From contig CAWGMQ010000008.1 of assembly GCA_963823665.1 (NCBI GenBank), positions 672,001-736,000 on the forward strand: DNA of 64,000 nucleotides, read 5' to 3'. Positions 2,277 through 16,197 of the stretch are shown piece by piece (the stretch's first letter is position 1; every line of letters starts with the position of its first letter). Source of the DNA: an uncultured Planctomycetota bacterium (GTDB lineage: Bacteria > Planctomycetota > Planctomycetia > Isosphaerales > Isosphaeraceae). The position numbers and the translations under genes were made by a program. Under the pieces are notes generated by a model. That model saw only the letters and a list, made by a program, of their open reading frames with translations, was not told where the DNA came from and did not search any database.

Positions 2277-3648
2277 GTCCTGTCGATCGGCCGTTCGGCC
2301 AGGAACGAGAACGAGTTGTTCCCCGAATTACCCGTTATTGGGGTTCATCTCAGCGGTTCCCACACCGCCCGCCGGCGCGCGCACGCACGGCTCCTATCTA
2401 GATGATCTACAAAACCCCCGATCCATTTGCGCCGAAGATGTGGAATTCGTCCATTTCGAGCGAGATTTCTCCGTCCCGGTCCTCCATCATCGGTGCTCCG
2501 CTTTCGGTCGTCCGCCCTCCGTCAGCCGTTCCCCCGCTCGGGTTCGTTCGCGAATTCCAGCCACGTTGTCAAGTCACCGTTCATGGGTGTTTTCGTGATC
2601 GAACCTTCACTCCAATTCCAAGTTACGCAGTTCCAGCCACCTGAGCTGTCTTGGGTTCGTTCGTCACATTTTGCGACTCACGGGATTGGCGTTTCTCTCG
2701 CAGCCGCACCTGAACTGCAGCGCCGATTCTCATCTCGCGAGGGCGAACGCGGCGCAACGCCGCTGCCGCGACCATTGCGTTCACCGCCGACGTGCACCCT
2801 GTCGAATCCCGATCCGGGTATCGTGTCATATTCTCTTCCCTCGTTCGTGAGATTCGTAAGATTCGTGGTTCGACGTCCCCCCGCCATGTCACACGGCAGC
2901 CTGGCCACGCTTCGCACGCTCCAAATAAGTAGGAGTGAATGGAACTAGATGGAACTAAACGGGACTCCTGGCCCCAAAAAAATCTCATTTTGCTTGCGGA
3001 CTTGAACCCCGTCCGATCGCTGGCCGGCCCCCCCTGAATCCGTACGGAAATGCTGAGTTCCAAAGAGGATAACGCCACCAGTCCCAATCCATGATCCCTC
3101 GGGCCAACGGGTGAAAACTCATCCTCCCGTGGTCCAGACCCGTCCCACGCGCGGCACAGCTCAAAATTCGGGTGGATTTCGCCGCGTACCGATCCCCCTT
3201 TACAAGCGCAGGCCGGCCCCATTTTCCCGATTGCACAGGCGTGGTCAGGCCGAGTTGAGATCCTCGAGCACGCGCTCGAGCAAACGGAGCAGTCATTCCC
3301 GGTTCCAGAGACATGGGTGGCTCGCCCCTCGCGCCGACTCCGGTGTCGGCGATCGAGACTGAGCTACTTATATTATGGACCCACTTTCGCGATTTGGCCA
3401 TTTCGTCGACCAGAAAACCTGGGATTTTTATCCGGCTTGTAATGGATACAACGACCAACTCGATCGAAACCCAATAAGGATTTGAGTTCGCGAAGCCGAA
3501 TCTCAAATCCCGGTTCAAGAAGCCCGTTGAGCGCACCCCGCAACCTGCTGTTAGGGAAACGGTTCGACACGAGAATGGGTGATCGAGGGTCAACGGAGGG
3601 AACCGAGAGGATCGCGCCGGGTCGCCTTGGGGGATCGCTCCCCCAAGG

Positions 3649-6068
3649 GCCGGGTAAGGAGGTGACGTTACCGCCACCCCCTCCCCTCAGAACTGCACGT
3701 GAAAGTTTCCCTTCATGCAGCTCAAGCCTTCACGAACGCCCCTCGCAGGACGCGGCCGCTTTCGTCAGTCGTTCTTGGACATGGATCTGCCGATGACAGT
3801 TGGCATGCAACAACTCCAGGTTGTCGGCTGTGCCAGAACCGCCCCGGCTGCGCCAGATGCGATGGTGGAGATGCAAGTCTTCCTCTGCGATCCGCAGCGG
3901 TTGACCACAGACCACGCATCGTCCCTCTTGTTCCTTCCATAAGTATTCGATCCGACCCCGACCTGCCAGCGTTTGGCTCAGTTGCCAACCCAGTCGTGCT
4001 TCCAGGTACAGTTCCCACTTCGGATCGTAGGGATTCACGTCGCTCCGGATCTTCACATAACGAATGATCTTCACTTTGGCTGCTTCCATCAACTGGATCG
4101 GCCGGCCTTGGCCTTTCTGGTCAAACAGCGTACCGGTGAAGACCCAGTGGCGGTAACCGTCTTGCTGGAAGTATTTCTCCTTGATCCACCTCCGGCCTTT
4201 GTTCTGGTGCCGTCGTCGACACCAACGCCACAATTTCTGGAAAATCCGGTGATCCACGTACGTAAAAGTGCGCTTGCTCGCCGCGTAACGGTGGTACATG
4301 GTCCAGCCCTTGATCTGCTGATTCAAACGCCAGATCATCTCTCCTGCCGTTAGGCTGCCCGAGCCGTCGATCGTTTCCTGTATCTTGTTCAAGAACGTCT
4401 TCACGTTTCGCAAGGACGGCTTGGTGAACACCTTGCCGCAGCGATAGCGTCGCACATTCTGCCCCAAGAAATCGAAGCCATCCTCCACATGCGTGATCTG
4501 GGTTTTCTCGTGGGAAAGTTCCAAGCCGCGTTCCTTCAAGAAATGAGCCACGAGAGGTTGCACTTGGTCACGGAGGAGTTCCTTTGAGATGCCCGTGATC
4601 AAGAAGTCATCCGCATAGCGGACCAGGTGGACTTTAAACTTCCGTTGTCGCCCGTGCTTCTCGGCGAACTGTTCCGCCAACAGCCGTTGCAGTCCATCCA
4701 GAGTCCAATTCGCCAGGACGGGTGAAATGATCCCGCCTTGAGGTGTTCCTTCCGTGGTGGCGAACCAGGCGTGCTTCTCCAGGAAACCCACTTTCAGCCA
4801 TTGCCCGAGCAACTGCCGGTCCATGGGGACGTGCGTCAAGAGCCAGTCATGACTGATGCGATCAAAGCAAGCTTTGATGTCCCCTTCGAGAATCCATGCT
4901 GGACCGCTCCGATTACCCAAGACAATATGAGATTGTTCCAGGGCGTCGGCACAACGACGTTCCAGCCGAAAGCCATAGGAATGGCCGTCGGCTCGAGATT
5001 CCGCAATGGGATCGAGGCCTAGCAAGTATAATGCCTGCATGGCTCGATCTGACATGGTGGGAATTCCGAGAGGACGTCGCTTGCCGTTGCTTTTGGGAAT
5101 GTACACCCGGCGGAGCGGTTGCGGTTGGTAACCGTGCCGACGCAGAGTGCTGAAAGCAGCCGACTTGGCTTCCGGTGTGTTCCAGAGAACTCCGTCCACA
5201 CCGGGAGTCTTCGCACCCGAATTACTGATGACTCGCAAAATGGCCAGGGCCCGGCCACTGAACGAGTGCGTGAGCAGATAAACCAGAGCCTTGACCTTAT
5301 TCCATCTGCCCTCCGCAACAGCCTTCACGATACGCGCCTGGAGCCGACGGACTGTGCGCCAGACTTTCTTCCATTCGATGGAGTGCCAGTCGGGCGTAAG
5401 CTCGGGAGCCGCACCAGCAAGCATTTCTGCCGCCGACATATCTGCTTGTCTCCCTGAGTCGGTTGGCCAAGGTTCTCTCGTGACGGAACACCTGAGGGAA
5501 GTCGGCACCGCTTTCGCGGTGAGGGGATGTCGTCCGTGGGAGGACTCACCCTCTATCCGATCGACTACCGAACGGCATTGGCTTGCTCCCTCATCCTCCA
5601 CCCGCCGCCCCATCGGCGACGCCTTACGACGGTCCTACCCCGAAGGGAGGGCGACGGGCTTACCACGTTCCACGGATGAATCACGGATGGTTTAGGCTCT
5701 GCCTCTCCGCCGGTGGCTCGGATGACGACGACAGGGGATGGGAAATCCCACTGTACCTGGCCACGTACCTTTTTGGTTCAAGCCTCTCAGCGCCTTTGGC
5801 TTGTTGGATCTCACGACGTTTATCGGCAGTTCACCTGGATTAGCCATGCCATCCACCCCTGGCCCCCGACCGCATTGGCGTTCGCAGTCGCCGGATTCCC
5901 TCACGGGATATCCAACCACCCGAAGGTGAGGTTACGTTGTCCCAAGAGCTTCGCACGGTCGGATTGCTCCGGCCGCACGTCCTGGTAGGGTTCCGGTGGT
6001 CGTACATCGGGTTATGTCCTGGTTGCAAATCCAGTCATAACAGACTCATCCGCAGCTTCGTTTCGCGA
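3649..6068 (-). mobile_element. Inner group II intron (chloroplast-like CL/IIB class), full length, 2420 nt
   Basis: 5' end TCGCGAAACGAAGCTGCGGATGAGTCTGTTATGA (CL-type). DV GAGCTGCATGAAGGGAAACTTTCACGTGCAGTTC at 3723-3690. DVI ends CCTTACCCGGC at 3649. EBS1 TTCCCA (5744-5739) and EBS2 AGATCC (5811-5806) match the 5' flank. Confidence 0.92.
3730..5439 (-). CDS. ltrA: Group II intron reverse transcriptase/maturase with C-terminal HNH endonuclease
   Basis: N-terminal WHSIEW...[11 protein letters not shown], then [33 protein letters not shown], the maturase X domain, and an HNH domain (CVVC...HLHH...[15 protein letters not shown]). ATG 5439 follows a GGAG RBS. Confidence 0.97.
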
Positions 6069-6994
6069 TTCCCACAGATCCGGACGTGTCCCATTAAGGC
6101 ATCCGGCTCGTCATGTCGCGGAGTCGCTGTCCCTCTCACGATCTGGCTGCCTTACGGGCACACGCTCTGAGGTCCAATGCCCTCGGCGTGGTTCCGGCGT
6201 CCAGTCCACGACACGGTACCCCCTTCGCTCCACAGGGTCTGGGAGGGCCCATTCCCCCGCTTCACTGCTACTACGGAGCACTCCGACTCCCGTCCGCCCA
6301 TTTCGCCGCACTTCGTTGCCTTCGTTTGGCGATACCACCCTTGCGTCTTGTTCGCTCCCAGCGACCCGACGCGGGGTCGTGGGCCGGGGAGTTGGTATTC
6401 CGGTTCCCGAGCCGGAAATGTCAGTGGAGACGGATGGGGCTCTCAGGTTCCCGAGCAACCCTCGCGTCCCTGCGCCATGTTCTTGGACCCCGGCAGGACC
6501 GAACACGCCAGGCCATTGCGGCGCGTCGACACAGCCCCCGCTTGTGTCTACAACGGAGGCTCCCACGATGAGTATTTCGGGGCTCGATAGCATGGCATGG
6601 AGACTCGCTGTCTACGCTTCGCAATGAGGGTCACCCCTCCCCACGCAAGACTTGCTTCCGGCTGCCGGCCAGGCTCTGCCGGGCGGGATTCGTTAACCCG
6701 CAGGGTCGCGATGAAAGGTTTCTGTGTTTCGAGGCACTTCCTCCTTTCTCGAGCTTTTCCTGACGCAAGGACACCCACCGATCAGCAACCGAAATTCCGA
6801 GGCGCTGACTCACGGCAACGACGTAGGCATCGAACATCATGAACTTCACTTGAGAAATCGTATACGACCTCTCCGTAGACCCATCTGCGATCGCCCACCG
6901 GGCGTGCCAGCTCCCCATCGGGGTGAACTCAACCAAAGCCGTCTGGCCGTCGACCAGCGCATCCATCCCGGCCGGCACGTAAGAAAGACCTCGT

Positions 6995-9030: not shown

Positions 9031-9326
9031 CCGGGCCCTTGCGCATCAACTCTGGTGCCCGTATCATGGATTAGAATTTCAAAAAATACTTGGCGTCCGC
9101 ATGGCTGGATTTAATTGTTGAGTCGCCAGGACAAGAATCGTATAATCGGCCCTCGATGACCGGACTGAAGCTCGTCACCGTGGACGCAGCTCCAGTCAAC
9201 CATTTCCAATTTGACCGGACGACTTGGCCCCGATCCGGGTTCCCAGCGGCGGTGCGCGGGCTCTTTTTCCTTTGAACCTGTGGACAAACGGCCGTGGCTC
9301 GCATTTCCCAGAGTATGGGAACCCTC

Positions 9327-9977
9327 ATGGCGGACGAATCAGGCGACAACGAAGCGCTCCTGGAGCGTGCGGCCGCCGGCGAAACAGCCGCGCTCGCCGA
9401 GTTCTGGGAGCGACATCATAAGCGTCTGCGCCAGATGGTGCGGCTTCGGCTCGATCGCCGCCTTCAGGGCCGGGTCGACCCCTCCGACGTTCTCCAGGAG
9501 GCTTACATCGACCTGGCCGCGCGACTCCCCGAGTATGCCCGCGATCGCCCCTTCACGCCGTATCTCTGGTTGCGCCTGGTGACCGGACAGCGGCTCATGG
9601 AAGTGCACCGCCGCCACCTGGGCACGGCGATGCGCGACGCCGGCCGCGAGGTCTCGCTCTATCGCGGCGCCCTGCCGCAGGCCAGCTCCATCTCGCTCGC
9701 CGCCCAGTTGCTCGGCCGGTTTACAACGCCGAGCCAGGCCGCTGTTCGTGCCGAGCGGAAGCTCCAGCTCCAGGGCGTCTTGAACGCCATGGACCCGATG
9801 GACCGCGAGATCCTCGCCCTGCGCCACTTCGAGGAGCTCACAAACGGCGAAGCCTCCGAGGTGCTGGGCCTTTCCAAAACCGCCGCCAATAACCGCTACA
9901 TGCGCGCCCTCGGCCGCCTGCGCAACCTGCTCGAGAGCTTGCCGGGGTTCCTCGAAAAGGCTGAGGGACCGCAATGA
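9327..9977 (+). CDS. Planctomycete-type ECF sigma-70 factor, kinase-associated
   Basis: LRLDRRLQGRVDPSDVLQEA and DREILALRHFEELTNGE; ATGA overlap with the downstream kinase. Confidence 0.92.
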   Translation: MADESGDNEALLERAAAGETAALAEFWERHHKRLRQMVRLRLDRRLQGRVDPSDVLQEAYIDLAARLPEYARDRPFTPYLWLRLVTGQRLMEVHRRHLGTAMRDAGREVSLYRGALPQASSISLAAQLLGRFTTPSQAAVRAERKLQLQGVLNAMDPMDREILALRHFEELTNGEASEVLGLSKTAANNRYMRALGRLRNLLESLPGFLEKAEGPQ

Positions 9978-12900
9978 CGGCTTCCGGAACTTCGGACGAA
10001 CGATTCAGCGCGCTGGCCGACGACTTCGTCAACCGCCAGCGTCTCGGCCAGAACCCTTCTATCGACGACTATGCCGCCGCCCACCCGGACCTGGCCGACG
10101 AGATCCGCCTCGCGTTTCCCGCCCTCTTGATGATCGCAGACTTGAAGCCTGGCCCGCGCGACGCCACCGGAGATTTCGAAGCCGCGTCCGTGGTCGTCCG
10201 CGGCGCTCGCCTCCAGCGGCTAGGCGACTTCCGTCTGCTCCGCGAGGCCGGCCGCGGCGGCATGGGCGTGGTCTACGAGGCCGAGCAGGAATCGCTCGGC
10301 CGCCGCGTCGCGCTCAAAGTGCTGGCGGCTCACGCGATCGCCGATCCGGCGCAGGTAAAACGATTCGAGCGCGAGGCCCGCGCAGCCGCGCAGTTGCACC
10401 ACACCAACATCGTGCCGGTCTTCGGCGTCGGCGAGCAGGACGGGCTCCACTACTACGCAATGCAGTTCATCCCGGGGCTCGGCCTCGATAGCGTGATCGA
10501 GGAGGTCAAGCGGCTTCGCTCGGCGCCCTCGACAAGCACACCGGCCAGTGCTCCTGTGCTCGAGCCGCGGAAGAGCCCCCTCGATATCGCCCCCACTGTC
10601 GCCGGGCTCGCCCGCTCGCTCTTGAGTGAACATTTCGATTCGACCGCCCTGGCCGCGTGCACGCCCGGTTCCATCGACGTGTTGCGGTCCGAGGAGCTGG
10701 GAATGATGGATCATTCCCCCCGGGCGCCGATCGAATCAGCCGAACTTTCTTCCGACGTGGTGCTCGGCCCGTCCGGGCTGTCGTCGACATCGGGATCAGA
10801 CACCCGCTACTGGCGCAGCGTGGCCCGGGTCGGGCTCCAGGTCGCCCAGGGGCTCGAATACGCTCATACGCAAGGCATCTTCCACCGCGATATCAAACCC
10901 TCCAACCTTCTGCTCGACGCCCAGGGAACGGCCTGGCTGACCGATTTCGGCCTTGCCAAGGCGGTCGAGGGCGACGACTTGACCCACACCGGCGACATCG
11001 TCGGCACGATCCGCTACATGGCCCCCGAACGCTTTCAGGGGCGCTGCGACGCGCGGTCGGACGTCTACGCCCTCGGCTTGACGCTCTACGAAATGGTGGC
11101 GCTGCGCCCGGCGTTCGACCACGCATCCCGCCAGGCGTTGATCCGCCAGGTAATGGAAGAAACGCCGCCCCGCCTGCGCAAGATCGTCCCCGGCATCCCG
11201 CGCGATCTGGAAACCATCATCCAGATGGCGATCGTGCGAGAGCCCGGCACTCGCTATGCGACCGCCGGTGCCATGGCCGACGACCTCGCGCTTTTCCTGG
11301 ACGGCAAGCCCGTCCACGCCCGAGATACCGGCCCGATAGAGCGGTGCTGGAAGTGGGCCCGGAGGCGCCCGTTGGTCGCAGGCTTGGTCACCAGCCTGGC
11401 CCTCGCTGTGTGCACAGGATTCGGATTGGTCACCTGGCACTGGCGCGCCGCAGTTGCGGCGCGCGACGAGGCGCTGCGAACGCTCAAGATGGCCAACCAG
11501 GCGGTCAACACTTATTTCACCAAGGTCAGCGAAGAGAAGCTGCTCAACGAACCCGGGATGCAACCGCTCCGTCGTGAGCTCCTGAAGCTCTCGATCCCGT
11601 ACTATCAGGCGTTCGTCGCCCAGCGCAGCGACGACCCCGCTCTGCGGGCCGACCTGGCCAAAGCCTATACCAACTGGGGCAAGGTCACAGGCGATATCGG
11701 CTCGACGGACGACTCGAGAAAACTCCTCAAGACCGCGATTGGCCAGTTCGAGCCCCTCCTCAGGGTCGATCCGTCCAACCGTGATCTTCAGATGAGCCTG
11801 GCACGGACCTATCTATACCTGGCTGAGCTGTCGTACCGGGCGAATGACGTGAAAGGGGGATCCGAAGCGGTCAACCGGTTAGCCGTCCTCTTGACGCGCG
11901 TGGTCAGTGCACCGCCCGACGACCCGGTGGCCAGGCGGATGCTGGGACGCTGCTATGACCTCGCCGCCAGTTTCCGCGTAGACGAAGATCCAGTAGAGGC
12001 GAAGCAGCTTTTCGAGAAGGCCCTGACGATCTTGAACGACGACGTCCGCGACTTCCCTTCCTACACCGAGGCCTGGTGGCAGCTCGCGGGAACCTATGCC
12101 AACCTCGCGTTCCTGCTGGGCCTCTGCGTGCACGGCGACTCGGACGAGGCAGATCGACCCATCTCCAGATCGATCGAAATCCTCAGGAAACTCCGCAACG
12201 ACGAGCCCGGCAGAGCATTGTTCGAGAAGGACCTCGCAAGGGCATTGATGGTCCGCGGCCAGATCTGCCTTTCCAGAGGCACCCTCACGGATGCCGGCGA
12301 AGCTTTCGACGAAGGACTGCTGGTTATCGAATCGGTCGTCGCGAGAAACCCCAACGTTAGCGAGTGTCTACACCGTTTAAGTATGATCCTCAGTTACGTT
12401 GCTGAAATCCGGCTCGAGCAAGGCCGCACCGCGATTGCGCGGAAACTTCTCGAGAAGGCGATTGCCCTTGAGCAGGATCTCTTCCGGCGCGGTGGAACCA
12501 TGGGCCAGAGCGCCGTGAATCTGATCGACTGTCAGTCCATGCTCGCCAGGCTCGAGCGAGAGTCGCGGAGGATGGACGCGGCCAAAAAGGCCATCAGCCC
12601 GCCACGACCGGAGATGCTAGCGCAAATTGCAGCCTCGCCGGACCCGAGTATCATGGGAATCGATTTGAAGGTGTTGCTCGAGGAAGCCTTTCTCGATTCC
12701 CACAGAGCGAAAGACACGTCCCCACAGTTAGGCCCCCTCCTGGAGGGATTACGGAAACGTGAAGACTTGCTGCGGAAGCATCCCGAGGATGTCAACTTCC
12801 GTCACCAGGTCGTCTCGGGATATCTGGCCCTCGGCCAGATGCTAGCAGCCTCCGGGTTAACGGGAGACGCGCTGAAGAAACTTGAAATCGCGGCCTCCCT

Positions 12901-13348
12901 GCTCGCGCCGGGACTGCAACAGGCGCCGCGGAATCTTCGCCTTCAGGCCCAGAAAACCCGGCTCGAAGTAGAGCGCGCCGCTCTCCTGGACCAGGGCGGT
13001 AACTCTGCCCAGGCACGCTCTGCGGCCGAGCACGCCGTCTCCCTCGCCGAGAAACTCGCGGCCGCAGACCCAGCCTACCAGTATGACCTGGCCTGTGCCT
13101 CGGCGCTCCAGTCCCGACTCGATCCGCCCGCCCCCGGCCATCCCAACACTGCCCTCGCCGCACTTCGGAAGGCCATCGAGGCCGGGTTCGATAACATCTA
13201 CAAACTCGAATCCGACCCTTATCTCACTGCGCTCCATTCGCTTGAAGAGTTCCGTCGCCTCGTCAAGCGCCTCAACGACACGAAGCAGCCGAATCTTCCT
13301 GAGAACGAAGACAGACCAGCCGCGCCCACCCATCCCTCCAAGCTCTGA
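9974..13348 (+). CDS. Ser/Thr protein kinase with TM and C-terminal TPR-like region (paralogue 1)
   Basis: GRGGMGVVY, VALK, HRDIKPSN, DFGLA, GTIRYMAPE; TM at about aa 465-490; helical repeats. Confidence 0.95.
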   Translation: MTASGTSDERFSALADDFVNRQRLGQNPSIDDYAAAHPDLADEIRLAFPALLMIADLKPGPRDATGDFEAASVVVRGARLQRLGDFRLLREAGRGGMGVVYEAEQESLGRRVALKVLAAHAIADPAQVKRFEREARAAAQLHHTNIVPVFGVGEQDGLHYYAMQFIPGLGLDSVIEEVKRLRSAPSTSTPASAPVLEPRKSPLDIAPTVAGLARSLLSEHFDSTALAACTPGSIDVLRSEELGMMDHSPRAPIESAELSSDVVLGPSGLSSTSGSDTRYWRSVARVGLQVAQGLEYAHTQGIFHRDIKPSNLLLDAQGTAWLTDFGLAKAVEGDDLTHTGDIVGTIRYMAPERFQGRCDARSDVYALGLTLYEMVALRPAFDHASRQALIRQVMEETPPRLRKIVPGIPRDLETIIQMAIVREPGTRYATAGAMADDLALFLDGKPVHARDTGPIERCWKWARRRPLVAGLVTSLALAVCTGFGLVTWHWRAAVAARDEALRTLKMANQAVNTYFTKVSEEKLLNEPGMQPLRRELLKLSIPYYQAFVAQRSDDPALRADLAKAYTNWGKVTGDIGSTDDSRKLLKTAIGQFEPLLRVDPSNRDLQMSLARTYLYLAELSYRANDVKGGSEAVNRLAVLLTRVVSAPPDDPVARRMLGRCYDLAASFRVDEDPVEAKQLFEKALTILNDDVRDFPSYTEAWWQLAGTYANLAFLLGLCVHGDSDEADRPISRSIEILRKLRNDEPGRALFEKDLARALMVRGQICLSRGTLTDAGEAFDEGLLVIESVVARNPNVSECLHRLSMILSYVAEIRLEQGRTAIARKLLEKAIALEQDLFRRGGTMGQSAVNLIDCQSMLARLERESRRMDAAKKAISPPRPEMLAQIAASPDPSIMGIDLKVLLEEAFLDSHRAKDTSPQLGPLLEGLRKREDLLRKHPEDVNFRHQVVSGYLALGQMLAASGLTGDALKKLEIAASLLAPGLQQAPRNLRLQAQKTRLEVERAALLDQGGNSAQARSAAEHAVSLAEKLAAADPAYQYDLACASALQSRLDPPAPGHPNTALAALRKAIEAGFDNIYKLESDPYLTALHSLEEFRRLVKRLNDTKQPNLPENEDRPAAPTHPSKL

Positions 13349-13398
13349 ATTCAGTGCGTTCGCCCCATGCGTCTATGACCGCATCGGGCGCGAGCCCA

Positions 13399-16197
13399 TC
13401 AACTTGCAAAAGGATCACCCGGCAGCGCAAGATCCATGAGCAGCATCTGGAAGTCGTCTCGGTCGCGCAGAGGCTCCAGTTCGGGGCTGGTTCGGAAAAC
13501 CTCCCGCGTCTTGAACCCACCCGCGACCGATCGTCGCAGCGCCAGCATCGCTTGATCGCCGTAGCGCCGGGCGTCCTCAGCCTCGGAAGGAGAGCGGCTT
13601 GCGGACGCAGGCGGGATGCGCAGTGCCAGGCAGCGCGCCGTGTGATAATGATACGTGGGCCAGCTTTGCGGCAAGGACTCCAGCAGCTTCTCGGCCTCGT
13701 CAAGTAGCTTGAGTGCCTCCGTGTACCGTCCCACCTTGCGGTACAGCCCGGCAAGCCCCGTGTCGCCGATGTCGAGGGCCTGCCTGTATCGAACGGTCTC
13801 GGGAGCGCCCTGCACCAGCTTCTGGATCACGACGCGTGCCTGCTCGTACGATTGGATCGCCTCGGCAGTCTGGCCCAGCTTGCATTGCAAGGCGGCGATC
13901 CAGTTGATGGTATCCGCCCGCTCGGCCTGAACACCTTGGTCGTTGCCGCGGTGGCGCACGCGAGTGTCCCAGATCGCCAGGGCCTCTTGTTGAATGAGCA
14001 GAGCCTTTGCGGGTTCACCCAACTGGTCGAGGAGCATGCCGACATGACTGAGGTTTGAAGCCAGCCTGAGTTGCAAACGAATGACGGTAGGATTATCGCG
14101 GACAAGGGCTCTCCTCAGCGCCAGTGACTTCTCAAGGAAATACAGCGACTGCGCGACCTGGCCCGTCGACTCGAGATTCGTCCCGAGGCCTCGGTATCCG
14201 TCAGCGAGATCATTTTGCCACTTCGAAACTTTTGGCTGGATGCGGACCAGCATCTCAAGCACCGAAATGGCTTCGCGGAAAGACCGATGCGCTGCCGTAG
14301 GCTGATTAACCCGATCTTGCTCCTGACCGTACCCGTAGAGCGCAAGGCCCAATGCGTTCTGAATATTGCCGTCCCGAGGATTGCCACGAGCCAGCGGGAC
14401 CAGGATCGCGAGGGCACGCTCGTGGGAGTGCAGCGAACCGTCTTCCTGGCCCAGAGCCGCCTGTAAGCCGCCGAGAGTCGCGAGGCAATCCGCGAGCGCC
14501 TTCCGAGCCTTTTGATCGGTCGGGTCCTCGTGTAGGATTCGCTCGCGGAGCGAGAGCTCGTGCTGAAACAAGATTAATGACTCGGCATGAGAGCCGAGTT
14601 CATTGGTGATTCTGGCGATTCTCGAGTACGCATGGGCCAGATCGACCAGAAGCTTCGGGTCATTTCCCTGACGTGCGATGAACCGTTGGTAATATTTAAG
14701 CGCATCCTCGAGCAGATTCTTGCGCAACTGGCGAAACTCGCCCAGATCTTCCTGGTTTAGCAGGGTCTCTTCACTGACTCTCAGCAGGTAGTCTTCGACA
14801 GCCTGCCCCGCATCGCGGGCACTCTCCAGAGCCCGTGTCTTTTCTGCCAGCGTCAGCGCCTGCGCCGCGCGCAACCGGGTCGCCGCCTGGTACTGCGACC
14901 AGGCCAGAGCAATCGAGAGTCCGGTCGCCAGCACCAGGCTCGCCGCGGACAAGCCGAAAGCAGCCGCCAGCCTTGGCTGCCGGCGGCACCACCGCACGAC
15001 CCGAGCGGGCGCTCCGAGTGGGCGGGCAAGAACCGGCTCGTTGGCGAGATACCTTCGCAGATCCTCCGCCATTGCTTCCGCACTTGAGTACCGAGCATCG
15101 GGCTCCTTCGACATCGCCTTCCGCACGATCGTCTCCAGGTCGGGCGCGATGCGGCGATCAAGCCGCCGTGGCGCGGCCGGCTCATCATTCTTGACACGAT
15201 CGATCAGTTTCGCCGTACTCGATTCGGCGAAAAGCGGACGAAGCGTGAGCAGCTCATACAAGGTCACGCCCAGCGAGTACACGTCGCTTCGCGGCTCCGA
15301 GCGTCCGTCAAACCGCTCCGGCGCCATATCGCGCACGGTGCCCACGGTATCTCCAGTCTGAGTGAGCCCGGCTTCGCCATCGAATGCCTTCGCCAGGCCG
15401 AAGTCGGTGACCCATACGCTTCCCTGCGTGTCGAGCAGCAGATTCGCGGGCTTGATATCGCGATGCAGAATTCCCTGCTCGTGAGCGTAGGCCAGAGCCC
15501 CAGCAACCTGAAAGCCAATCCGCGCGATCGTTTGGAAGTGATTCGGGTCAGCGCCAGCCGATCCCGCGAGCCGGTCAAAGATCTGGTCCAGGCTCTCGCT
15601 CTCGATGAACTGCATCACATAGTAGAGCTGACCTTCGTCCTCCCCCACACCGAAGACAGGCACGATATTGGTGTGATGCAGCTTGCCCGCGGCGCGAGCC
15701 TCACGGTGGAAACGCTGGACTGATGTCGTCGAGGCGCGATGGACGAGCATGATCTTGAGCGCCGCTCGGCGGCCAAGGGCGAGCTCGATCGCCTCGTACA
15801 CAACGCCCATGCCGCCGTGGCCGATCTCACGAATGATCTGGAAACCGGCGACCGCTGGCAACTGCCGCACTTTGGACAACGATGATTTCGCCGCCAAAGC
15901 GGTGCCGGCACCGGCGCCTTCCGAACTTATCCTCGTCCGATGATCCCGATGCGCCTTGCGCGGTGGGCCGCGGTCCTTGAGCGATTGAAGCACGGCGCAA
16001 TCGAGGCTCTCTTCGCGTCGCTGCGGTGATCGACAATCAACGGCCAGTGCCTCATTTCGCACGACCATGAGGCCTTCCAGTCGCCGCTGACAGAGGGCGC
16101 AGCACTCAACGTGATCCTCGACCGCTTCGTACTGTCGGTCGTCGAGCTGCTCGTCCAGCAAGCGATCCAGTTGGCCGAAGAACGCGCAGCTATCCAT
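13399..16197 (-). CDS. Ser/Thr protein kinase with N-terminal HxxxCxxC zinc-finger, TM and TPR repeats
   Basis: HVECCALC, GHGGMGVVY, HRDIKPAN, DFGLA, GTVRDMAPE; TPR-like C-terminus. Confidence 0.93.
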   Translation of the reverse strand: MDSCAFFGQLDRLLDEQLDDRQYEAVEDHVECCALCQRRLEGLMVVRNEALAVDCRSPQRREESLDCAVLQSLKDRGPPRKAHRDHRTRISSEGAGAGTALAAKSSLSKVRQLPAVAGFQIIREIGHGGMGVVYEAIELALGRRAALKIMLVHRASTTSVQRFHREARAAGKLHHTNIVPVFGVGEDEGQLYYVMQFIESESLDQIFDRLAGSAGADPNHFQTIARIGFQVAGALAYAHEQGILHRDIKPANLLLDTQGSVWVTDFGLAKAFDGEAGLTQTGDTVGTVRDMAPERFDGRSEPRSDVYSLGVTLYELLTLRPLFAESSTAKLIDRVKNDEPAAPRRLDRRIAPDLETIVRKAMSKEPDARYSSAEAMAEDLRRYLANEPVLARPLGAPARVVRWCRRQPRLAAAFGLSAASLVLATGLSIALAWSQYQAATRLRAAQALTLAEKTRALESARDAGQAVEDYLLRVSEETLLNQEDLGEFRQLRKNLLEDALKYYQRFIARQGNDPKLLVDLAHAYSRIARITNELGSHAESLILFQHELSLRERILHEDPTDQKARKALADCLATLGGLQAALGQEDGSLHSHERALAILVPLARGNPRDGNIQNALGLALYGYGQEQDRVNQPTAAHRSFREAISVLEMLVRIQPKVSKWQNDLADGYRGLGTNLESTGQVAQSLYFLEKSLALRRALVRDNPTVIRLQLRLASNLSHVGMLLDQLGEPAKALLIQQEALAIWDTRVRHRGNDQGVQAERADTINWIAALQCKLGQTAEAIQSYEQARVVIQKLVQGAPETVRYRQALDIGDTGLAGLYRKVGRYTEALKLLDEAEKLLESLPQSWPTYHYHTARCLALRIPPASASRSPSEAEDARRYGDQAMLALRRSVAGGFKTREVFRTSPELEPLRDRDDFQMLLMDLALPGDPFAS

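Follow-up and report, generated by a model that had tools for sequence, protein, structure and literature searches.

The window analyzed here, a 64,000-nucleotide (nt) stretch of an uncultured Planctomycetota bacterium of the family Isosphaeraceae (assembly GCA_963823665.1, contig CAWGMQ010000008.1, positions 672,001 to 736,000), carries on its minus strand a group II twintron, in which a complete group II intron is nested in another one that lacks an open reading frame (ORF). The inner intron is inserted at the junction of domains V and VI (DV and DVI) of the outer intron, and this junction is its regular homing target and not the site of a one-off event. Sequence comparison indicates that the inner intron is very probably a member of an IIB1/CL1-type sub-lineage whose retrohoming target is the DV-DVI junction of other group II introns.

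Nested organization of the two introns

Both 5' ends, at 6768 for the outer and 6068 for the inner intron, and both 3' ends, at 3616 and 3649 respectively, were located on the minus strand where the original prediction had set them, as were the two DVs (Table 1). The Rfam group II models, which had been suggested as a check, recognized two distinct domain I (DI) sequences on this strand, RF02005 at 6692-6478 (135.8 bits) and RF02012 at 6011-5862 (105.5 bits), as well as one DV-DVI match that corresponds to the inner intron, RF00029 at 3725-3649 (63.4 bits). Because two DI models, two DVs and two 3' ends are present, the nesting is complete. The junction between outer and inner sequence is exact and cannot slide. 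It lies 8 nt past the last DV pair, in the 5' strand of the outer DVI, leaving DV contiguous and splitting DVI between the basal stem with its bulged A (3622) and the distal hairpin. The insertion had been described as one into the catalytic core, which is imprecise: DV is intact and the basal helix of DVI is split instead, while exon-binding site 2 (EBS2) of the inner intron reads the 3' strand of DV.

Copies of both introns in the same genome were compared by BLAST over 20 stretches of the genome. Interrupted and uninterrupted ORF-bearing copies of the outer intron differ solely by the 2420-nt insert at this junction, with zero duplication or loss. The same DV-DVI join is found in uninterrupted copies (13 ORF-less and two ORF-bearing), and removal of the inner intron restores the outer one exactly; the genomic copies thus support a precise insertion into an ORF-less intron. 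The predicted clean DV-DVI without duplication or loss was borne out in the latter respect, but the rejoined RNA departs from its siblings at 6092, 6089 and 6069. The rejoined last 78 nt fold as DV and DVI with a z-score of -3.7 against 500 dinucleotide shuffles, whereas the whole rejoined 733 nt reach only -1.7 against 40 shuffles and their six domains were not recovered by whole-molecule minimum free energy folding; DI is documented by Rfam and the homologues. Across eight uninterrupted copies, 97.5% of the cells of the DVI helix are paired (62% or less in slid controls), seven of its 15 pairs show two-sided changes, and the basal pairs are kept in 8/8 or 7/8 copies.

The inner intron encodes a protein with RT-X-HNH architecture, in which RVT_N, RVT_1, GIIM and HNH were identified by Pfam. 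Its best solved relative, 6me0_C (the next match has an E value of 9e-39), is the CL1 protein of a IIB1 intron as described in PMC8643678. The inner DV shows an AGC triad and a 2-nt bulge, and DVI carries a bulged A, according to both RF00029 and the fold. Together with EBS1, a 5-bp EBS2, a pairing of EBS2a with intron-binding site 2a (IBS2a) at -14, and the reverse transcriptase (RT), X and endonuclease (En) domains, these traits assign the inner intron to the IIB1/CL1 type.

The outer intron is 733 nt long without the insert and shows no ORF, slightly above the size range of 450-700 nt given in PMC3753933 for class E/F introns when the ORF is not counted. Its alpha-prime stands at the tip of a stem-loop, and the DV loop has 5 nt in uninterrupted sisters, although it is altered in the window copy; both are class E/F features according to PMC3753933. 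Thirteen uninterrupted ORF-less copies in the same genome are 96.3-97.7% identical to the outer 5' part, there are six ORF-bearing sisters, two of them uninterrupted, and divergent ORF-less relatives are about 72% identical. The sister protein (474 aa) contains RVT_1 only and no En domain, as described for intron proteins of classes C-F (PMC4424553); its ORF is full length in two of the six sisters and ends early in the other four, possibly through sequencing errors. The outer intron is therefore of class E/F type. Its EBS1 changes in step with the exon in divergent copies, with the exception of loci L066 and L110.

Table 1. Features of the twintron in the window (all on the minus strand).
Feature	Position	Strand	Evidence
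Outer ORF-less group II intron, 5' part (DI to DV, first DVI bases), class E/F-type	6069..6768	-	RF02005, 135.8 bits; 13 uninterrupted copies 96.3-97.7% identical
Outer EBS1 (AGACAC)	6544..6549	-	Loop tracks 5' exon in divergent copies; one mismatch at -1 here
Outer alpha-prime, tip of stem-loop (class E/F feature)	6510..6519	-	RF02005 alignment; alpha/alpha-prime letters co-change in divergent copies (by eye)
Outer DIV, about 105 nt, no ORF (474-aa RT here in ORF-bearing sisters)	6112..6218	-	Fold; sister ORFs
Outer DV, AGC triad; intact, upper stem altered at 6092 and 6089	6077..6109	-	Comparison with siblings; fold
Inner IBS2a (6082) and IBS2 (6081-6077), end of outer DV 3' strand	6077..6082	-	Complementary to 5812 and 5810-5806; covariation in 78 non-redundant relatives
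Inner IBS1, 5' strand of outer DVI basal stem	6069..6074	-	Complementary to 5744-5739
Inner group II intron, 2420 nt, IIB1/CL1-type	3649..6068	-	RF02012, RF00029; 7 full genomic copies 100% identical
Inner EBS2a (5812) and EBS2 (5810-5806)	5806..5812	-	Complementarity, covariation; definition from PMC8643678
Inner EBS1 (UUCCCA) in stem-loop	5739..5744	-	Complementarity
Inner intron-encoded protein, 569 aa: RVT_N, RVT_1 (YADD), GIIM, HNH	3730..5439	-	Pfam; best solved relative 6me0_C, E 7e-181
Inner DV	3690..3723	-	RF00029; fold
Inner DVI, bulged A at 3655, 3' end	3649..3689	-	RF00029; fold
Outer 3' part: DVI distal hairpin, bulged A at 3622, 3' end	3616..3648	-	Identical to DVI of 2 uninterrupted ORF-bearing copies; helix covaries

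Target recognition and occupancy of the DV-DVI junction

The EBS2a/EBS2 sequence of the inner intron is complementary to positions -14 to -9 of the target, where the 3' strand of the host DV ends; this part pairs with the strand carrying the AGC triad. Its EBS1 is complementary to -6 to -1, the 5' strand of the host DVI basal stem. The inner intron lands in introns because its EBS loops read the end of DV and the start of DVI. Pairing was examined in relatives of the inner intron: 98 aligned rows gave 92 with exon, usable start and EBS2 loop, and 78 of these were non-redundant. In these 78 relatives, 394 of the 468 cells of EBS2/EBS2a are Watson-Crick pairs (shuffle mean 140, maximum 175), EBS2a pairs in 67 and the EBS2 positions in 59 to 71 of them. 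Furthermore, EBS1 is altered along with the host in loci L151 (CCCCCA with TGGGGG), L152 (CTCCCA with TGGGAG), L189 and L217, and EBS2 is altered in L189, whose host is of CL1 type. The inner intron's own junction shows two mismatches to its EBS2 and one to its EBS1, and no inner copy inserted in another inner copy was found among the copies of this genome. A candidate G for EBS3 was discarded and EBS3 is not claimed, as the clade shows no variation at this G but does so at the +1 base.

Seven full copies of the inner intron were found in this genome, all 100% identical and all located at the same nucleotide position of a DV-DVI junction. Their hosts are one ORF-less intron (the window copy), four ORF-bearing introns and two divergent ones (about 72% identity). 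Since identical inner copies sit in diverged hosts (98.8-99.9% identity among the ORF-bearing copies and 91% between the two divergent hosts), they point to repeated recent insertion, an argument also used for Thermosynechococcus elongatus (PMC2882425). An eighth, partial copy is also followed by the DVI remainder. It consists of the last 182 nt of the inner intron (L074, C8:1396090) and lies behind three tandem target repeats of the outer family. Insertion of an ordinary intron into another one by chance or at an ectopic site, for which the many intron copies of this genome would offer abundant targets, is a highly improbable explanation: the 7/7 copies at one nucleotide position, the complementary and covarying EBS letters and the use of the same DV-DVI site by relatives elsewhere all contradict it.

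A pattern scan of the genome detected 14 sites with T and 17 with A at -8. Sites with the IBS2 and IBS1 letters of the window and C at +1 are filled in seven of nine cases, against none of 14 with A at -8 (Fisher p = 1.5e-4, on copies that are not independent), and the 13 ORF-less sisters, which have the variant junction, are not invaded. Three non-intron sites that match the T-at--8 pattern are empty. Since the ORF-less copies are not identical to one another (mean identity 98.9%), most of them predate the burst of the inner intron. The idea that A at -8 protects the ORF-less copies by breaking the EBS2-IBS2 pairing was rejected: -8 does not covary (T in 32, C in 24, A in 15 and G in 7 of the 78 relatives), it falls outside an EBS2 of 5 bp as defined in PMC8643678, and an invaded site with A at -8 exists in genome G368 (L233). 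The determinant of the empty variant sites could be -8 read in another way, or the 3' bases +3 and +7.

Outside this genome, 13 of 19 distinct clade-type 5' junctions (those with the start motif of the clade), from 10 sources, are located at a DV-DVI junction, and the DVI remainder stands directly after the inner 3' end at four further loci. The invaded hosts comprise class E/F types, whose triad is either AGC or AAC, as well as CL1-type introns (L179, L189 and L217) that are 83-88% identical to the inner intron. In a tree of domains I to III (96 rows), all DV-DVI cases fall on one side of a branch with 100/100 support, and on the other side none of 81 rows passes the DV test; the test was relaxed to admit hosts with an AAC triad, L252 and L233 (truncated DV) were counted by eye, and L262 (long branch) was left unclassified. 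Close relatives that carry a taxon title are mostly from Planctomycetota, with one 98% identical copy labelled Actinomycetota. In addition, an RNA-library contig of a relative (X16 record 23, 5771-6114) spans the 5' junction into DV.

Several observations weigh against a lineage devoted to this target. Six of the 19 clade-type junctions lie at non-intron sites, most of them in a nested subclade with other EBS letters and moderate support; on the near side of the branch this subclade has three rows, other EBS letters, non-intron targets and a support of 83/82. Three invaded sites (L084, L150 and L217) show one pairing mismatch each, and two of the nine matching sites of this genome are empty. 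Furthermore, the inner intron starts with UCGCG in all seven genomic copies and not with the canonical GUGYG. GUGYG is a usual 5' boundary and not a strict class feature; among the relatives of the inner intron the 5' ends are GUGCG, UUGCG and CUGCG.

By analogy with known IIB1 retrohoming, the ribonucleoprotein would reverse-splice into the target DNA, the HNH domain would cut the opposite strand and the RT would copy the intron. The benefit to the inner intron would be a conserved, multi-copy target outside host genes. A wider proposal is possible but doubtful: the lineage may parasitize the universal core of group II ribozymes, retune EBS1 and EBS2 between class E/F and CL1 hosts, avoid its own junction in this genome, and gate host splicing and mobility by binding the catalytic helix, in an arms race on several levels that would include a second, unrelated intron entering DV. 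Under this proposal, the contrast between all 14 variant junctions empty and seven of nine matching ones filled would arise because hosts escape by structure-neutral changes near the site.

The intron that enters DV is a different group II intron, with an open frame of 662 residues with RT motifs and an RF00029 match at its 3' end, located inside the DV of CL1-type relatives just past the GAAA loop (L156:2029-4471, L185:1237, L203:869 and L137 at about 5737). This junction was detected in three of 146 loci by pattern and in a fourth by eye. It represents a second lineage targeting the ribozyme core.

Two arrangements of the outer families were also observed. At L064, L065, L066, L076 and L078 (contigs C11, C6 and C5), the ORF-less/ORF-bearing family and one divergent family occupy opposite strands of the same near-palindromic dispersed repeat, and the EBS1 sequences of these two families are near reverse complements. 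At L067:6547-8036 and L068:8348-9659, outer-type introns are arranged in tandem with a short regenerated target of 24 to 34 nt between them, an arrangement that suggests repeated homing beside an earlier copy.

State of the outer copy and order of splicing

The outer copy of the window departs from its sisters by three small defects. Its upper DV stem carries two changes (6092 and 6089) in relation to all 13 ORF-less siblings, and A at 6069 stands opposite C where the eight uninterrupted DVI copies have a G-C pair. Furthermore, its EBS1-IBS1 pairing is mismatched at -1, because the 5' exon ends in C, and this base is T in 19 other ORF-less and ORF-bearing copies. Beyond weighing against strictly ordered splicing, these changes could mean that this copy no longer splices even after the inner intron leaves and is a mere landing pad. 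The flanks are in agreement with this: neither gave a Pfam match, so no host gene was seen across the final exon junction, and the sequence upstream of the 3' flank is a different one in its closest paralogue. The upstream gene (7581-6995, minus strand) looks broken: about 280 bp are missing that separate the two matched blocks in homologues from many genomes of the family. Even so, such a dead copy is rather unlikely, as the outer DI scores 135.8 bits against 138.4 in an uninterrupted sister, its private DI changes are three transitions that leave G-U pairs (by eye), and the catalytic triad and the bulged A are intact.

No host gene, as far as seen, depends on the splicing outcome, in line with bacterial twintrons being mostly intergenic (PMC4424553). 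An empty allele was not found among the family matches to the 5' flank, most of which end at a clear distance from the site; a single one (G406) extends to it and shows no 3'-flank match in the stretch examined, and the 3' flank was searched in this genome and 14 loci. Downstream, positions 3472-2900 form a non-coding-looking repeat of about 570 bp with 47 genomic matches, one paralogue of which precedes a transposase-like ORF. Farther away, at 9294-16197, an ECF-sigma-like ORF lies beside large Ser/Thr-kinase-like ORFs (1124 and 932 aa), all named by eye; this combination is typical of Planctomycetota.

The DVI of the window copy is of the ORF-bearing type (3648-3616 is identical to the last 33 nt of the two uninterrupted ORF-bearing copies), whereas its 5' part is of the ORF-less type. 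Retention of an ancestral DVI and exchange across the repeat both fit. An improbable reading is that the combination of ends arose across the identical 2420-nt repeat, through recombination or as an assembly chimera. The divergent host at C8:520311 carries the same DVI, which descent cannot explain, L217 mixes a CL1-type DV before the insert with an E/F-type DVI after it, and no read of four runs spans the window locus; however, an early-branching ORF-less copy keeping the ancestral DVI would look the same, and the reciprocal product is absent among the seven loci. A chimera would moreover leave nesting and targeting untouched, as both recur in 10 other sources. Mixed ends are seen at L073:5154-8312 (C8): in this divergent host, whose 3' exon starts as in the divergent family, the inner intron is followed by a DVI of the ORF-bearing family, owing either to exchange of a short segment across the repeat or to the assembly.

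With regard to splicing, EBS1 and EBS2 of the inner intron bind bases that the host needs for the base of its DV and DVI, and the outer and inner folds would therefore compete. Lariat splicing of the outer intron probably needs prior removal of the inner intron, since these bases are shared and an insert of 2420 nt interrupts the basal helix of DVI; outer branching would then follow inner splicing. After this removal, the ORF-less outer intron would depend on the 474-aa protein supplied in trans by its ORF-bearing sisters. In four of 21 runs (two of RNA and two of DNA, all of them contigs from other strains), neither the joint 3649-6068, expected from inner splicing, nor the joint 3616-6768 was among the 15 of 17 joints listed. 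Owing to the strain difference between these runs and the window, the absent joints are no evidence against splicing.

Targeting could hold while the order is not forced, if the outer intron hydrolyzes its 5' site and excises the whole 3153-nt unit, or if it borrows the inner DV-DVI. The outer intron is contiguous from DI to DV, the insertion lying past DV, and both introns have identical final seven bases, so that the inner DV-DVI would be usable. Published work also speaks against a strict order: group IIE introns self-spliced solely by hydrolysis in vitro, with no branching (PMC3753933); in "zombie" twintrons, one of which has its insert in DI, the outer intron is spliced while the inner one is still unspliced (PMC7049729); C.te.I1 makes use of alternative DV/VI repeats (PMC4424553); and splicing does not always require EBS2-IBS2 (PMC3753933, PMC8643678), which would ease the competition at DV. 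We nevertheless consider an unforced order unlikely. EBS1 and EBS2 of the folded inner intron would occupy the host DV and DVI strands, and the DVI basal pairs are conserved in the uninterrupted copies. In addition, a double DVI remainder, expected if the inner intron used the outer 3' site, is found in none of the seven insertions, and an inner-less intermediate was detected for the Trichodesmium twintron (PMC4649490).

Relation to known twintrons and significance

Twintrons, intron-into-intron homing and sequential splicing in bacteria have already been published (PMC4424553, PMC4649490, PMC2882425), and what sets the present case apart is the landing site at DV-DVI. The closest case is that of T. 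elongatus, where family F3 (TeI3a-e) homes to a conserved site in F1 (TeI4a-e), with identical inner copies in diverged outer introns and a CL1-type protein family, as in the present genome (PMC2882425). According to the same source, that inner intron is ORF-less and lies between two start codons of the host DIV ORF, whereas the present one carries an RT-En gene of its own and is inserted in the ribozyme, at DV-DVI; its hosts include introns of another class as well as CL1-type introns. The nested introns of Methanosarcina acetivorans, as summarized in PMC4424553 and PMC2882425, likewise show repeated site-specific homing into group II introns as a perpetual target. By the title of Dai and Zimmerly 2003, that target is the ORF of related introns, which an ORF-less host would lack; in the present genome, three of the seven copies have entered ORF-less hosts.

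Trichodesmium erythraeum Tr.e.I7/I8 is also a bacterial twintron with a IIB1 inner intron in a structural domain, and is spliced sequentially in vivo, but its insertion is in DI, at a single locus in a protein-coding host gene, and the account in PMC4649490 points to no lineage-wide target. The Euglena psbF twintron resembles the present one in having a group II intron in the 3' catalytic region of another; it is chloroplastic and the insertion is inside DV, and nothing in its citation in PMC8393795 points to a mobile lineage that targets this site. EcI5 and T.el4h, IIB1 introns with a CL1 reverse transcriptase, share the protein architecture and the EBS1/EBS2/EBS2a scheme of the inner intron; their natural targets, as presented in PMC8643678, are apparently not the DV-DVI junction. 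In a full-text literature search, the text retrieved described no bacterial lineage homing to this junction; database records or supplements may hold cases. Such cases may escape annotation, as RF00029 gave no score to the outer-type DV-DVI of an uninterrupted copy and one published pipeline misses outer introns of twintrons (PMC8919778).

In the bacterial intron-into-intron homing described so far, the target is either the ORF of the host or one site in DI. A target composed of DV and DVI is present in every group II intron, with or without ORF, and can drift only at neutral positions. The system can be used to test the need for DVI and an intact DV base in class E/F splicing when nested, as well as the way in which an intron docks on an RNA exon when a stable helix locks the binding sites. 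Furthermore, as a single genome holds seven invaded hosts and over 15 free ones, the system offers a test of how selfish elements limit each other.

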